A stretch of 64,000 nt of DNA from the NCBI RefSeq assembly GCF_054482525.1, contig NZ_CM137006.1, one strand, 5' to 3'. The notes under the pieces were generated by a model. It was not told the DNA's origin. It searched no databases and saw nothing but the letters and a program-made list of their open reading frames with translations. This document shows, in pieces, positions 18,149-23,329 of the stretch. A program made the position numbers and the translations under genes. How positions within the stretch are numbered: the first letter of the stretch is position 1; each line of letters starts with the position of its first letter.

Positions 18149-20140
18149 ATGTCCTCACGTAAAGAGCTTGCCAATGCTATTCGTGCGCTGAGCATGGACG
18201 CAGTACAGAAAGCCAAATCCGGTCACCCGGGTGCCCCTATGGGTATGGCTGACATTGCCGAAGTCCTGTGGCGTGATTTCCTGAAACACAACCCGCAGAA
18301 TCCGTCCTGGGCTGACCGTGACCGCTTCGTGCTGTCCAACGGCCACGGCTCCATGCTGATCTACAGCCTGCTGCACCTCACCGGTTACGATCTGCCGATG
18401 GAAGAACTGAAAAACTTCCGTCAGCTGCACTCTAAAACTCCGGGCCACCCGGAAGTGGGTTACACCGCTGGTGTGGAAACCACTACAGGTCCGCTGGGTC
18501 AGGGTATTGCCAACGCAGTCGGTATGGCGATTGCAGAAAAAACGCTGGCGGCGCAGTTTAACCGTCCGGGCCACGACATCGTCGACCACTACACCTACGC
18601 CTTCATGGGCGACGGCTGCATGATGGAAGGCATCTCCCACGAAGTTTGCTCTCTGGCGGGTACGCTGAAGCTGGGTAAACTGATTGCGTTCTACGATGAC
18701 AACGGTATCTCTATCGATGGTCACGTTGAAGGCTGGTTCACCGACGACACCGCAATGCGTTTCGAAGCTTACGGCTGGCACGTTATTCGCGGCATCGACG
18801 GTCATGATGCGGCATCCATCAAACGCGCAGTAGAAGAAGCGCGCGCAGTGACTGACAAACCGTCCCTGCTGATGTGCAAAACCATCATCGGTTTCGGTTC
18901 ACCGAACAAAGCCGGTACGCACGACTCCCACGGTGCGCCGCTGGGCGATGCTGAAATCGCCCTGACCCGCGAACAGCTGGGCTGGAAATATGCACCGTTC
19001 GAAATCCCGTCTGAAATCTATGCTCAGTGGGATGCGAAAGAAGCAGGCCAGGCGAAAGAATCCGCATGGAACGAGAAATTCGCGGCTTACGCCAAAGCTT
19101 ATCCGCAGGAAGCCGCTGAATTTACCCGCCGTATGAAAGGCGAAATGCCGTCTGACTTCGATGCCAAAGCTAAAGAATTCATCGCTAAACTGCAGGCTAA
19201 TCCGGCGAAAATCGCCAGCCGTAAAGCGTCTCAGAATGCGATTGAAGCGTTCGGTCCGCTGTTGCCGGAATTCCTCGGCGGCTCTGCTGACCTGGCACCG
19301 TCTAACCTGACCCTGTGGTCTGGTTCTAAAGCAATCAACGAAGATGCTGCGGGTAACTACATCCACTACGGTGTTCGCGAGTTCGGTATGACCGCGATTG
19401 CTAACGGTATCTCCCTGCACGGTGGTTTCCTGCCGTACACCTCCACCTTCCTGATGTTCGTGGAATACGCACGTAACGCCGTACGTATGGCTGCGCTGAT
19501 GAAACAGCGTCAGGTGATGGTTTACACCCACGACTCCATCGGTCTGGGCGAAGATGGCCCGACTCACCAGCCGGTAGAGCAGGTCGCTTCTCTGCGCGTG
19601 ACCCCGAACATGTCCACATGGCGTCCGTGTGACCAGGTTGAATCCGCGGTCGCGTGGAAATACGGCGTTGAGCGTCAGGACGGCCCGACTGCGCTTATCC
19701 TCTCCCGTCAGAACCTGGCGCAGCAGGAGCGTACTGAAGAGCAGCTGGCAAACATCGCGCGCGGTGGTTATGTGCTGAAAGACTGTGCCGGTCAGCCGGA
19801 ACTGATCTTCATCGCGACCGGTTCGGAAGTTGAACTGGCTGTTGCCGCCTACGAAAAACTGACTGCCGAAGGCGTGAAGGCGCGCGTGGTTTCCATGCCG
19901 TCTACCGACGCGTTCGACAAGCAGGATGCGGCTTACCGTGAATCCGTACTGCCGAAAGCGGTTACTGCACGCGTTGCGGTAGAAGCGGGTATTGCTGACT
20001 ACTGGTACAAGTATGTTGGCCTGAACGGCGCTATCGTCGGCATGACCACCTTCGGTGAATCTGCTCCGGCAGAGCAACTGTTTGAAGAGTTCGGTTTCAC
20101 CGTTGACAACGTTGTTGCGAAAGCGAAAGCGCTGCTGTAA
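18149..20140 (+). CDS. tktA: Transketolase 1 TktA, 663 aa
   Basis: Start [20 protein letters not shown] at ATG 18149; thiamine diphosphate enzyme. Confidence 0.95.
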
Positions 20141-20162
20141 TCGGTAAGATGCTTTGTGAGAA

Positions 20163-20188
20163 GGGCCGCGAAAGCGGCCCTTTTTTAC
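20163..20188 (+). terminator. Rho-independent terminator after tktA
   Basis: GGGCCGCGAAAGCGGCCC followed by TTTTTT; the convergent SPFH gene stop codon lies in the T-run. Confidence 0.6.
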
Positions 20189-21093
20189 TTGGTGGAGATA
20201 AACGGAACTGTGCTGCCGGGGATCATGGTATCGGGTAGCTTACCGTCCCAACGCTCTGCAGTGGTTAGGGCAACAAGTCCGGGATTATCCCGCAGAGCTT
20301 CACCGCGCAGGCGGATAGCTTCTGCTTCAGCCGCACTTTTTAAACGAATAGTTTCAGCCTCTGCCGCGCCTCTTACGCGAATAGTCTCAGCTTCTGCTTT
20401 GGCTGCCGCCAGTTTACTGTCTGCTTCAGCCTGGGCCTGAGTTACTGCTATTTGCGCCTGGATTTTCTCTGTTTCCAGATTTTGCCTACGAGTAGCAATT
20501 GCAACTTCCGCTTTCATTCGGTCTTCAATCGATTTTTCATAAGCATCTGAAAAATCGATATTCTCGATCTGAACTCCGTCTATCACTACCGGGCCAACAA
20601 CCGCTTTGCGCATCGCGTTTTGCAGATCCTGCACCAGTTTCGTACGATCTTGTACTGCGCTAATGGCTGTATATTGCCCGAAAACGTTCTCCAGTTGGGT
20701 TGGCAGCTGGCGGACGATCAGACGCTCTTTTAAAGATTCAATGGTGTTGTAGGTTGTATAAACTGCGCCAGCTTCTGAAGGTTTAATGTGGAAGCTGACT
20801 GATACTGTCATTTGTGCCGGTTGCTGGTCGCGGCTGTAGGCCTGTAATCCCTGATAGACCACAGCCTGATTACGCGTGGAAATTTTCTCCACGCTTTCCA
20901 TAAAAGGGATCTTAAAACCCAGCCCCGGCTCGGCAACTTTTACGATTTTTCCGTAGCGCAGCAAAATGCCGCGTTCACCTTCATTAACGGTGTAATACGA
21001 GAGAAATGGCAGCACAACCACGGCAAGCACGCCAATGACGATAGCAATAGATTTTTGTGGGCGAAATGAGGTTATTGAAACAGGTGCTTTCAT
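20185..21093 (-). CDS. SPFH/band-7 (prohibitin/HflC-like) membrane protein, ~302 aa, with C-terminal Ala/Glu-rich tandem repeats
   Basis: ATG(rc) 21093 with AAGGAAG RBS; N-terminal TM helix IAIVIGVLAVVVLPFL; SPFH-like core; three 11-aa repeats EAETIRVRGAA/EAETIRLKSAA/EAEAIRLRGEA. Confidence 0.75.
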   Translation of the reverse strand: MKAPVSITSFRPQKSIAIVIGVLAVVVLPFLSYYTVNEGERGILLRYGKIVKVAEPGLGFKIPFMESVEKISTRNQAVVYQGLQAYSRDQQPAQMTVSVSFHIKPSEAGAVYTTYNTIESLKERLIVRQLPTQLENVFGQYTAISAVQDRTKLVQDLQNAMRKAVVGPVVIDGVQIENIDFSDAYEKSIEDRMKAEVAIATRRQNLETEKIQAQIAVTQAQAEADSKLAAAKAEAETIRVRGAAEAETIRLKSAAEAEAIRLRGEALRDNPGLVALTTAERWDGKLPDTMIPGSTVPFISTK

Positions 21094-21469
21094 GACAATC
21101 TTCCTTGAGTAAAGTGGGGAATATGTCACATGAGGTGAGGAGAAAACAGCCGACAGGTGAGAATTCAGAATCTATAAAGGGGTATAGCGAAAAAACATTG
21201 CATTAGAAAAGTATGCTTTCGGATATTCAATAAATAAATGGCGATATGCATCACAAATACAATAACAAACAAAATATTGATTTTGTGATAAACATACCAA
21301 ATACAAAGTTGACTTTAAAAATATCAATTTCATGTTGTTGTTATTTAAAGTTTTATTATTTTTACTGATGAGGTTTTTCTTCTCGCGTGCCCAATTGCTT
21401 TCATTAAACCGCACGAGTATTTTATTTTTACCGCCGGACGGCACCCTAAAAATAAAATAAGGATAATTT

Positions 21470-21913
21470 ATGCGGCTTATTAATTATTTTCCAGAATCAT
21501 CAATCTCAGTTATACATTCAGCAAAAGATTGGCAGGAAGCTATCGATTTCTCGATGGCATCATTGCTGGATAAAAACTATATCAGCGAGAATTACATTCA
21601 GGCTATTAAATATTCCACCATGAGTAATGGCCCTTACTATATTCTCGCGCCAGGCGTGGCAATGCCTCATGCGCGACCAGAATGTGGGGCGCTTAAAACC
21701 GGGATGTCATTGACGTTACTTACACAAGGCGTTTATTTTCCGGGGAATGATGAGCCGATAAAATTACTCATCGGGCTTTCTGCTGCCGATGCCGATTCGC
21801 ACATTGGCGCTATTCAGGCGTTAAGTGAATTACTGTGCGAAGAAGAAATACTCGAAGAACTCTTAACAGCATCATCAGAAAAACAATTAGCGGACATTAT
21901 CAGCCGCGGATAA
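21470..21913 (+). CDS. cmtB: Cryptic mannitol-type PTS enzyme IIA component CmtB, 147 aa
   Basis: PTS EIIA-2 fold with active-site His region GVAMPHARPE. Confidence 0.85.
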   Translation: MRLINYFPESSISVIHSAKDWQEAIDFSMASLLDKNYISENYIQAIKYSTMSNGPYYILAPGVAMPHARPECGALKTGMSLTLLTQGVYFPGNDEPIKLLIGLSAADADSHIGAIQALSELLCEEEILEELLTASSEKQLADIISRG

Positions 21914-21940
21914 TGACTCTCTCCTCTACAGGATAATATT

Positions 21941-23329
21941 ATGGAAAACAAGTCTGCTCGTGCAAAGGTCCAGGCTTTTGGGGGCTTTTTGACTGCAATG
22001 GTCATCCCCAATATCGGTGCTTTTATTGCCTGGGGTTTTATAACTGCGTTATTTATTCCCACCGGTTGGCTGCCGAATGAACATTTCGCCAAAATTGTCG
22101 GCCCGATGATTACCTATTTATTGCCCGTGATGATTGGTTCTACTGGTGGTCACCTGGTCGGCGGTAAACGCGGCGCGGTCATGGGCGGAATCGGTACTAT
22201 TGGTGTGATCGTCGGCGCAGAGATCCCGATGTTCCTTGGCTCAATGATTATGGGGCCGCTCGGTGGTCTGGTCATAAAATATGTTGATAAGGCACTGGAA
22301 AAACGCATACCTGCCGGTTTTGAGATGGTTATCAATAACTTCTCATTAGGTATCGCGGGGATGCTCCTTTGTCTGCTGGGTTTTGAAGTGATCGGCCCGG
22401 CGGTGTTAATTGCCAATACTTTCGTCAAAGAGTGTATTGAGGCGCTGGTACATGCGGGTTATCTGCCTCTGCTGTCAGTCATCAATGAACCGGCGAAAGT
22501 GCTTTTCCTTAATAATGCGATCGATCAGGGCGTCTATTATCCGCTGGGAATGCAACAGGCTTCGGTTAACGGCAAATCCATCTTCTTTATGGTGGCATCC
22601 AATCCAGGGCCTGGCTTAGGACTGTTGCTGGCATTCACTCTGTTTGGTAAAGGGATGAGTAAGCGCTCTGCGCCTGGCGCGATGATTATTCACTTCCTCG
22701 GTGGGATCCACGAACTGTATTTCCCATATGTGCTGATGAAGCCACTGACCATTATTGCCATGATTGCGGGCGGTATGTCCGGCACCTGGATGTTTAACTT
22801 ACTGGATGGTGGTTTGGTGGCTGGCCCAAGCCCTGGCTCTATTTTTGCTTACCTGGCACTGACGCCGAAAGGCTCGTTCCTGGCGACAATTGCCGGTGTT
22901 ACGGTAGGTACCCTGGTGTCCTTTGCTATCACTTCGCTGATACTGAAGATGGAAAAAACGGTGGAAACGGAGAGCGAAGATGAGTTTGCTCAGTCAGCCA
23001 ATGCGGTTAAGGCGATGAAACAAGAGGGTGCATTCTCGTTAAGCAGGGTTAAGCGTATCGCCTTTGTTTGCGATGCGGGGATGGGCTCCAGTGCGATGGG
23101 CGCAACCACCTTCCGTAAACGTCTGGAAAAAGCGGGGCTGGCAATTGAAGTAAAACATTACGCGATAGAAAACGTGCCTGCGGATGCGGATATCGTTGTT
23201 ACTCATGCCAGTCTGGAAGGGCGCGTGAAACGTGTGACGGATAAACCGCTGATACTGATTAATAACTATATTGGCGATCCAAAACTCGACACTTTATTTA
23301 ATCAATTAACCGCCGAACATAAAAACTGA
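21941..23329 (+). CDS. cmtA: Cryptic mannitol-type PTS enzyme IICB component CmtA, 462 aa
   Basis: Membrane EIIC followed by EIIB domain (FVCDAGMGSSAMGA). Confidence 0.85.
   Translation: MENKSARAKVQAFGGFLTAMVIPNIGAFIAWGFITALFIPTGWLPNEHFAKIVGPMITYLLPVMIGSTGGHLVGGKRGAVMGGIGTIGVIVGAEIPMFLGSMIMGPLGGLVIKYVDKALEKRIPAGFEMVINNFSLGIAGMLLCLLGFEVIGPAVLIANTFVKECIEALVHAGYLPLLSVINEPAKVLFLNNAIDQGVYYPLGMQQASVNGKSIFFMVASNPGPGLGLLLAFTLFGKGMSKRSAPGAMIIHFLGGIHELYFPYVLMKPLTIIAMIAGGMSGTWMFNLLDGGLVAGPSPGSIFAYLALTPKGSFLATIAGVTVGTLVSFAITSLILKMEKTVETESEDEFAQSANAVKAMKQEGAFSLSRVKRIAFVCDAGMGSSAMGATTFRKRLEKAGLAIEVKHYAIENVPADADIVVTHASLEGRVKRVTDKPLILINNYIGDPKLDTLFNQLTAEHKN

Follow-up and report, generated by a model that had tools for sequence, protein, structure and literature searches.

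The window, a stretch of 64,000 nucleotides from contig NZ_CM137006.1, carries a lone SPFH (band-7) gene between tktA and cmtB. It occupies positions 20185..21093 on the minus strand (stop codon included), encodes 302 aa and is convergent with tktA, whose end lies at 20140. A Shine-Dalgarno sequence read from the DNA, AAGGAAG (21100..21106, minus strand), is located 6 nt 5′ of the ATG at 21093, and for this reason, and in agreement with RefSeq, the 302-aa start was preferred and a GTG-extended ORF of 314 aa was dropped. In RefSeq the same 909-bp CDS is annotated in strain SCU-102, with DNA 100% identical, and its product (WP_001600456.1) is named "prohibitin family protein"; the ORF of about 302 aa that had been proposed from the letters alone (hereafter the sequence-only reading) was thus confirmed. 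The gene is already annotated in databases and is a known, fairly ordinary accessory gene; literature searches found no functional study or paper on the tktA-adjacent SPFH protein of E. coli.

Folding revealed a GC-rich hairpin, GAAGGGCCGC-GAAA-GCGGCCCTT, followed by a T-run (20160..20186), which overlaps the SPFH stop codon and was assigned as the tktA terminator, common to both convergent genes. Its folding energy was −25.8 kcal/mol (z=−4.4) on the plus strand and −18.1 kcal/mol, without a U-tract, on the minus strand. Our promoter/terminator scan had overlooked this structure, because extension of the stem consumes the T-run, and it was folding that confirmed the hairpin, which is kept in Pseudocitrobacter and Kluyvera as well. 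On the other side, a divergent intergenic region of 376 bp (21094..21469; 32% GC) separates the gene from cmtB, so that the arrangement described in the sequence-only reading, convergence with tktA and then an AT-rich region before cmtB, was found as claimed. This spacer is hypervariable (79-96% identity between haplotypes), and its conservation with K-12 is good only over the cmtB-proximal ~82-115 bp. A 90-aa ORF within it (21172-21444) was judged spurious, having no Pfam match and lying in the hypervariable region. The promoter scan detected no strong sigma-70 consensus or promoter-like site 5′ of the SPFH gene, and an Rfam scan of positions 19800-21800 (E<=1) returned no match.

In E. coli the gene is flanked by core genes, with no mobile-element neighbours. 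Among 80 SPFH loci compared, there was no conserved neighbour, no neighbour family common beyond the genus level and no recurring second SPFH gene; an NfeD gene was absent from the neighbourhood in the window and was not a conserved neighbour across the 80 loci. The description of a solitary gene therefore holds. The GC comparison proposed in the sequence-only reading gave unremarkable values (49% overall, GC3 45.5%), and this ordinary composition therefore offers no support for a recent foreign origin.

The protein begins with a signal-anchor or TM helix (residues 15-33; 20995..21051, minus strand) with a mean Kyte-Doolittle value of 2.49 over 19 aa, which AF2 modelled as a helix at residues 12-32. 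The Band_7/SPFH domain follows at residues 35-210 (20464..20991, minus strand); the Pfam search that had been suggested as a check matched PF01145 with E=3e-31 and 109.3 bits against a gathering cut-off of 23.6, covering profile positions 2-176 of 176, and AF2 gave an alpha/beta SPFH fold with pLDDT of ~90. Next comes an Ala/Glu-rich helix of 87 residues (183-269; 20287..20547, minus strand), which AF2 modelled as one uninterrupted helix; full-length Foldseek alignments with chains of HflC, HflK, PHB1/2 and erlin equate it with CC1, the coiled-coil helix in the wall of SPFH cages. Both the N-terminal anchor and the C-terminal helix that mark the superfamily are therefore present, and the sequence-only assignment (SPFH/band-7 family, TM anchor, core like that of prohibitin or HflC) is upheld by Pfam, hydropathy, AF2 and the fold matches. 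The long helix showed no clear peak when its hydrophobic pattern was Fourier-tested for a 3.67-residue (hendecad) period, and a hendecad coiled coil is therefore not claimed. The chain ends in a conserved tail (residues 270-302, NPGLVALTTAERWDGKLPDTMIPGSTVPFISTK; 20188..20286, minus strand), supported by homologue alignment and by phrog_38808, whose match spans residues 245-302; L276, A279, W282, G284, L286, P287, P292 and P297 are invariant in the 54 homologues. In the AF2 monomer model, mean pLDDT was 83.8, with low values in the tail. The PHROG label "lipoprotein" was rejected, since the protein contains no Cys and no lipobox.

Within the long helix lie three tandem 11-residue (33-nt) repeats, AEAETIRVRGA, AEAETIRLKSA and AEAEAIRLRGE (residues 233-265; 20299..20397, minus strand), recognized by unit comparison and a shuffle test, together with a degenerate fourth unit (20398-20430, minus strand). 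Nucleotide identities between units were 26/33, 19/33 and 21/33. None of 1000 codon shuffles attained the observed repeat score, whether the whole CDS or the helix alone was shuffled, and the three repeats noticed in the sequence-only reading are thus significant. TRF at score 30 did not report the 33-nt period; the repeat is therefore degenerate at the DNA level.

HflC and HflK of E. coli, members of SPFH3, form a 24-mer cage that modulates FtsH (PDB 7vhp, 7wi3, 9cz2). By profile comparison with solved structures, the protein matched HflC (2e-20), HflK (2e-12), prohibitins (3e-11 to 1e-10) and QmcA (2e-7), and the best Foldseek match was again HflC (7vhq_G, 9.5e-18), followed by PHB1/2, erlin1/2 and HflK, all over ~250-310 columns; HflC is thus the best match by sequence and by fold. 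The sequence alignment with HflC begins at the TM and covers mainly residues 16-166. Like HflC and HflK, the protein has 1) one N-terminal signal-anchor with V-x-EGERG-x-x-LR-x-GK directly after it, 2) an SPFH domain, a long Ala/Glu-rich wall helix and a C-terminal cap segment, and 3) probably the same periplasmic orientation. Unlike them, it is shorter than either at 302 aa and is encoded by a single gene between tktA and cmtB with no adjacent hflK-hflC pair, so that a cage, if any, would be homo-oligomeric. The NCBIfam equivalog cut-offs were missed for both HflC (TIGR01932, 60.6 vs 134.4; NF008259, 54.1 vs 427 bits) and HflK (TIGR01933, 37.5 vs 159.4; NF008181, 35.5 vs 660).

Similarity to PHB1/PHB2 was also significant over the full length, although HflC scored higher still: the prohibitin profile matches were 9urz_B (E 3.4e-11, positions 22-264) and PHB2 (1.1e-10), and the full-length fold matches were 8rrh_A (2.8e-15) and 8rrh_B (4.3e-15). 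In size (~270-300 aa) and domain order the protein resembles PHB1/PHB2 and SPFH4, but it differs from eukaryotic prohibitins, where PHB1 and PHB2 form hetero-oligomers, in being a single gene, and in being nearer to HflC in sequence. The flotillin model (FloT/YqiK, SPFH2; NF058507) scored 17.1 bits, where 700 are required, and a stomatin-type SPFH1 operon with NfeD was found neither around the gene in the window nor across the 80 loci. SPFH4 is likewise stand-alone, NfeD not having been found for it (PMC2636767). As of 2009, bacterial SPFH4 members were without experimental study (PMC2636767), and our literature searches found no later study of a bacterial SPFH4/prohibitin-type member.

E. coli possesses HflK/C. 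The gene therefore departs from the usual SPFH4 situation in that it would share a genome with HflK/C, a co-occurrence described as rare (Hinderhofer et al. 2009, PMC2636767), and for this reason a plain role as an HflK/C substitute is a poor fit. The SPFH paralogues of K-12 are four, namely HflK, HflC, QmcA and YqiK (PMC10434171).

From the N-terminal charge bias and the closest relatives, a periplasmic location of the SPFH domain, like that in HflK/C, is probable. The net charge is about +1.9 in the N-tail vs ~0 after the TM, a bias seen in 46 of 54 homologues; with K and R counted alone, the N-tail exceeded the 15 residues after the TM in only 29 of the 54, which is weak support for the topology. 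The same orientation was predicted for SPFH4, likewise as a prediction only (Hinderhofer et al. 2009, PMC2636767).

QmcA, the stomatin-type SPFH1 protein solved with the NfeD protein YbbJ (QmcA-YbbJ, PDB 8z5g), faces the cytoplasm, and the protein studied here could have the same fold and oligomer with its SPFH domain turned to that side as in QmcA/YqiK, acting on the inner membrane from its cytoplasmic side. QmcA is similar in length, its homo-oligomeric SPFH cage is built from one gene product, the relationship is significant by sequence (4e-7, 2e-7) and by fold (274 columns), and the charge difference between the two sides of the TM is modest. We nevertheless regard this orientation as somewhat unlikely: HflC, HflK and the prohibitins outscore QmcA by far, and all of these are oriented towards the periplasm or intermembrane space; the N-tail, like that of HflC, has K2, R11 and K14 but nothing acidic; and there is no adjacent NfeD gene, the usual partner of cytoplasm-facing stomatin-type proteins (PMC2636767).

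The gene was found in 1829 of 5426 complete E. coli genomes, always at the tktA site, with carriers including NCTC86 as well as CFT073, NC101 and E2348/69, classic strains of extraintestinal or EPEC type. Nearly all non-carriers (3559 genomes) had a K-12-type empty site, and ~11 genomes gave only partial matches. In the K-12 derivative JM83, 313 bp lie between tkt and cmtB and the SPFH gene is missing, which agrees with the spacing of about 300 bp that the sequence-only reading gave for K-12, and no remnant of the gene was found in the K-12 tkt-cmtB spacer. The same reading had taken the gene to be strain-specific, which is contradicted by its presence in about a third of the genomes, and to have been inserted between tktA and cmtB, which probably has the polarity wrong. 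The junction of tkt, hairpin and SPFH gene is kept in E. albertii, E. whittamii, cryptic Escherichia, Pseudocitrobacter and Kluyvera (five genomes), the other flank being different; the divergence of the gene parallels that of its flanks; and the empty site is nearly monomorphic (3350 genomes share it at 99% identity or more, as compared with 90-100% for gene-bearing haplotypes). These comparisons suggest that the gene is probably ancestral at the locus and was lost in K-12-like lineages, the empty site being derived.

Homologues of the protein also occur on mobile elements. The closest plasmid homologues, 72-74% identical, were located between traB and traV of F-type tra operons, one on an IncFII/IncR plasmid of Enterobacter and one on a plasmid of Kosakonia; homologues with ~50% identity over residues 30-302 were found in jumbo phages (~350 kb), among small phage genes clustered in the early region; SPFH proteins encoded on phage-plasmids, non-mobilizable and ~95-113 kb long, from E. 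coli, Yersinia and Salmonella have the same C-terminal module; and phrog_200 was matched with E=8e-63. These observations would fit a domesticated or recently acquired mobile-element gene with a role in conjugation machinery or phage-host conflict, such as a scaffold for an envelope-spanning apparatus or superinfection exclusion, rather than in housekeeping membrane quality control. The plasmid and jumbo-phage "prohibitin family" homologues share a two- or three-unit helix and the C-terminal tail with our protein, but the latter has three repeat units and is encoded by a chromosomal, monocistronic gene with core metabolic genes on either side. Against such an origin stand the absence of mobile-element neighbours in E. 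coli, the tkt junction kept across three genera, the divergence parallel to that of the flanks and the ordinary GC; in addition, no family of the PADLOC anti-phage defence models was matched (E<=0.01), and the tra-embedded cases inspected were only two. We therefore consider it quite improbable. That the gene is a decaying, functionless remnant, tolerated in some lineages and deleted in others, is disfavoured and hardly credible, for although it is absent from two thirds of E. coli, only partly matched in ~11 genomes and frameshifted in one variant (P0015), its retention goes back beyond the divergence of Escherichia and Kluyvera, each of the 59 alleles sampled is full length, and dN/dS values of 0.015-0.04 over dS of 0.25-0.48 (against five other Escherichia alleles) indicate that it is under strong purifying selection.

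We thus think it likely that the accessory gene beside tktA is intact and looks expressed, that its position 3′ of tktA is ancestral, and that it encodes a fifth SPFH protein of E. coli, a member of the HflK/C-prohibitin branch ("prokaryotic prohibitin" or SPFH4 type) that is anchored in the inner membrane through its N-terminal helix and forms a homo-oligomeric cage. By homology to 7vhp/7wi3, 8rrh and 8z5g, and from full-length fold matches of the monomer model to cage subunits, the most likely assembly is a homo-oligomeric inner-membrane cage of the HflK/C or prohibitin kind. The single N-terminal helix would remain uncleaved as the anchor, and many copies would, by analogy with the HflK/C, prohibitin, erlin and QmcA assemblies, close into a dome whose SPFH domains lie on the membrane, whose wall consists of the 87-residue helices and whose cap is made by the conserved C-terminal tails. 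By fencing off a patch of membrane, the cage may govern the access of client membrane proteins, or their stability. In Pseudomonas aeruginosa, where PaFlo9 is also a monocistronic SPFH gene, loss of the entire set of nine SPFH genes by deletion had hardly any phenotypic effect (PMC13086221), and the role of the gene described here may therefore be subtle.

E. coli work on SPFH proteins assumes the four K-12 paralogues, and a third of the genomes, standard pathogenic references included, encode a fifth. It is possible, although we hold it to be unlikely, that in these strains the protein builds a fifth SPFH compartment, homo-oligomeric, periplasm-facing, prohibitin-like and distinct from HflK/C, with a wall longer by one in-register 11-residue unit, which scaffolds or protects envelope-spanning machinery instead of modulating FtsH; the scaffold role is suggested by the recruitment of relatives into F-type conjugation operons and jumbo phages. 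If so, the carrier lineages would gain a capacity for membrane organisation that is missing from the K-12 model. In other respects the gene is an ordinary annotated accessory gene and opens no new kind of system.

As a single gene, it would be a convenient model of a homo-oligomeric bacterial prohibitin cage, as predicted here, and the repeats offer a natural test of how helix length affects cage geometry, since three units were present in Escherichia vs two in all other genera aligned, and a one-unit version of 280 aa exists in E. albertii. Escherichia and its relatives would have inherited the gene at the tktA 3′ flank from a common ancestor, the K-12-like lineages that make up two thirds of E. 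coli would have lost it later, and the wall helix would have gained one 11-residue unit in the Escherichia lineage, where it is now fixed. The sequence-only reading had supposed that copy number could vary among strains, and this stood only in part. The CDS length was exactly 909 bp in all 59 sampled E. coli alleles; repeat number is stable in E. coli, and the unit difference is fixed between genera. Variation was seen in that difference and in rare variants among thousands of sequences, with one unit fewer in P0011 and in the frameshifted P0015 and two fewer in P0013.

The SPFH gene occupies positions 20185–21093 (minus strand; 909 bp, 302 aa) of the window, with an ATG start codon at 21093 and AAGGAAG six bases upstream. 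The gene order is speB, an M48 peptidase gene (which, judging by its position, we take to be loiP/yggG of K-12), tktA, the SPFH gene, cmtB, cmtA and yggP. As the sequence-only reading had described, the gene is convergent to tktA and separated from cmtB, which starts at 21470, by an AT-rich spacer, here measured as 376 bp with 32% GC; the GC content of the gene itself is an ordinary 49%. Folding revealed a GC-rich hairpin common to tktA and the SPFH gene (20160–20186), which on the tkt strand has -25.8 kcal/mol (z=-4.4) and a T-run, and which on the SPFH strand is formed but without a U-tract. The DNA of SCU-102 was 100% identical to that of the window, and a RefSeq annotation already exists for the same CDS ("prohibitin family protein", WP_001600456.1). 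It was also noticed that the spacer (window 21094–21390, compared with positions 2330–2500 of the K-12 locus, L001, and with the CFT073 locus, L002) is hypervariable among haplotypes, being 79% identical to that of CFT073, with flanking genes at ~95–96%, and aligning loosely with K-12 except for the final ~82–115 bp before cmtB. Relaxed constraint and suppressed recombination beside an indel are both possible explanations.

Pfam Band_7 was matched end to end over residues 35–210 (E=3e-31) and residues 15–33 form a strongly hydrophobic helix, thus bearing out the N-terminal TM helix and SPFH/band-7 domain proposed for a protein of ~302 aa. With 54 homologues as input, AlphaFold2 gave a model (mean pLDDT 83.8) with a TM helix (12–32), an alpha/beta SPFH domain, an unbroken single helix (183–269) and a poorly modelled C-terminal tail; the tail is highly conserved, with L276, A279, W282, G284, L286, P287, P292 and P297 invariant in 54 sequences. 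Foldseek against the PDB gave HflC as the top match (7vhq_G, 9.5e-18), followed by PHB1/PHB2, erlin1/2, HflK, stomatin, QmcA and flotillin, mostly over ~250–310 aligned columns, and a profile search of PDB sequences gave HflC (2e-20), HflK (2e-12), prohibitins (3e-11 to 1e-10) and QmcA (2e-7). The protein belongs to the HflK/C-prohibitin branch, and HflC, HflK and FloT themselves were ruled out because its scores fell well short of the NCBIfam equivalog cut-off for each; PADLOC gave no match for it. Under the classification of Hinderhofer et al. 2009 (PMC2636767), its counterpart is the stand-alone "prokaryotic prohibitin" group (SPFH4), which had no experimentally studied bacterial member known to these authors. 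The E. coli SPFH literature deals with the four K-12 paralogues only (PMC10434171), and our literature search found no paper on this gene, an accessory one that is already annotated but uncharacterised and belongs to a well-known family. In P. aeruginosa, deletion of all nine SPFH genes had almost no phenotype (PMC13086221), which tempers expectations. The observation was confirmed and its earlier interpretation partly supported.

The three 11-residue repeats previously noticed hold up at residues 233–265 (AEAETIRVRGA, AEAETIRLKSA and AEAEAIRLRGE; window 20299–20397), directly preceded by a degenerate unit, AEADSKLAAAK. Nucleotide identities between the units were 26/33, 19/33 and 21/33, too degenerate at the DNA level for TRF, which did not report the repeat. 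The repeat is non-random, far beyond chance, since the observed score was reached by 0/1000 codon shuffles of either the whole CDS or the helix alone. In an alignment of 26 homologues, three units were present in E. coli, Shigella and the 305-aa E. albertii protein, whereas every homologue from other genera (including Klebsiella, Kluyvera, Kosakonia, Mixta, Erwinia, Salmonella, Pseudomonas and Dokdonella) had two; the Escherichia lineage therefore gained its third unit by duplication. The suspected variation in copy number does occur within Escherichia, where one unit is missing from protein variants P0011 and P0015, the latter also frameshifted, and two are missing from P0013 (E. albertii, 280 aa), but it is rare; 59/59 full-length alleles sampled evenly over 1829 E. 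coli genomes were exactly 909 bp. Indels at the repeats came in whole 11-residue steps, which suggests that the helix would be kept in register; a direct test of helix 183–269 for 3.67-residue periodicity gave nothing clear-cut.

The gene is not strain-specific, as it had seemed, being carried by 1829 of 5426 complete E. coli genomes (at least 80% of the gene in 1818 of the 1829), including CFT073, NC101, E2348/69, NCTC86 and A0 34/86, and all carrier records, whether inspected or sampled, had it between tkt and cmtB. Its absence from K-12 held up: the K-12-type empty tkt-cmtB site was found in 3559 genomes, including BL21, the K-12 derivative JM83 and O103:H2 12009. Together, the empty and gene-bearing haplotypes account for nearly all of the complete genomes; the former is almost monomorphic (at least 99% identity in 3350 genomes), and the latter range over 90–100% identity. 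ETEC O6:H16 M9682-C1 shares identical Tkt and CmtB proteins with K-12 and nonetheless carries the SPFH gene; therefore, presence or absence is not strictly tied to the flanking alleles. The AT-rich spacer of this strain carries an IS1 (L093 1617–2314, NZ_CP024275.1, equivalent to window 21094–21469). Comparison of window 18700–23329 with K-12 and CFT073 revealed that, by E. coli standards, the window strain is unusually divergent, with tkt, cmtB and cmtA only ~95–96% identical to both. Matches of at least 99% to this region occur in only 2–3 of the 5426 genomes, SCU-102 being identical, and the source is probably a rare, deep-branching E. coli lineage.

The simplest reading is that the gene is old, vertically inherited, under purifying selection and lost once toward K-12-like E. 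coli. The same position is occupied in E. albertii, E. whittamii and Escherichia sp. MOD1-EC7003, and in Pseudocitrobacter vendiensis and Kluyvera intermedia the gene is convergent with tkt with the same hairpin between (GTGAGAAGGGCCGCGAAAGCGGCCCTTTTTTT in Pseudocitrobacter), the other flank being the epd-pgk-fbaA region in Kluyvera and neither cmt nor epd in Pseudocitrobacter; this ancestry comparison of the tkt flank was made without Salmonella, Citrobacter and E. fergusonii. At the nucleotide level, the gene becomes less identical to the window copy in step with its flanks (SPFH gene vs tkt: E. coli alleles, 94% vs 96%; E. whittamii, 91% vs 94%; Pseudocitrobacter, 78% vs 92%; Kluyvera, 75% vs 88%), and dN/dS was 0.015–0.04 against five other Escherichia alleles. 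A recent insertion at tkt-cmtB is less likely, given the tkt-hairpin-SPFH junction shared with Pseudocitrobacter and Kluyvera and a GC content that does not indicate a recent foreign origin. No remnant of the gene was visible in the K-12 spacer, and the K-12 tkt terminator is a different hairpin. The tkt-SPFH interval of many Escherichia genomes contains a ~175-bp unit consisting of a terminator-hairpin copy and a pair of REP-like palindromes (GCCGGATGCGGCG... / GCCTGATAAGCG...CATCAGGC), single in CFT073 (L002 1542–1759), AZ162, E. albertii (L005 5919–6136) and E. whittamii, three in tandem in MOD1-EC7003 (L014 ~5910–6480), and absent from window 20141–20184, Pseudocitrobacter and Kluyvera. 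As the hairpins on either side of the unit are duplicates, recombination between them may account for its gain and loss.

That the gene is solitary was borne out in 80 loci, each from the genome of a different species, whose neighbourhoods had no NfeD gene, no second SPFH gene and no neighbour family shared above genus level. By homology, the protein has every module of the solved HflK/C, prohibitin, erlin and QmcA cages, with a membrane anchor, membrane-proximal SPFH domain, wall helix (longer by a predicted three turns with the extra Escherichia unit) and cap segment. By analogy, it would enclose a patch of the inner membrane under a dome, limiting access to or from client proteins, and a homo-oligomer would be expected because there is no partner gene. 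The N-tail has K2, R11, K14 and no acidic residue (family mean net +1.9 vs 0 after the TM), and the nearest relatives all face the periplasm or intermembrane space; this argues moderately, not decisively, for a periplasmic SPFH domain. FtsH would be the obvious client candidate by the same analogy, whereas relatives in tra operons hint instead at envelope-spanning machinery.

The gene family is also mobile. Two plasmids, an IncFII/IncR plasmid of Enterobacter hormaechei (L094 4905–5789, NZ_CP103496.1) and one of Kosakonia radicincitans (L095 4923–5789, NZ_CP040393.1), carry homologues with 72–74% identity between the traB and traV genes of F-type tra operons, in the order traA-traL-traE-traK-traB-hyp-[prohibitin family protein]-(hyp)-traV-traC; an SPFH scaffold within a T4SS operon may deserve study in its own right. 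A homologue with 48–53% identity over residues ~30–300 is present in jumbo myoviruses of ~350 kb that infect Cronobacter, Yersinia, Serratia, Erwinia and Xanthomonas (hits H33–H45); in Cronobacter phage GAP32, it lies within a cluster of small hypothetical genes close to the end of the genome (L097 2932–3789, JN882285.1). The C-terminal module turns up again in SPFH proteins encoded on ~95–113-kb non-mobilizable plasmids, suspected phage-plasmids, of E. coli, Yersinia, Salmonella and Shigella (H153–H185). Such a protein, named "SPFH domain-containing protein", is encoded on several hundred of these plasmids and resembles the window protein only in part: in the copies from E. coli, Shigella and most Salmonella, the match is confined to residues ~238–302 (41–55% identity), and in those from Yersinia pestis, some Enterobacter and some other Salmonella, it covers residues 157–302 (32.5% identity), suggesting that the repeat-plus-tail segment is a separable module.
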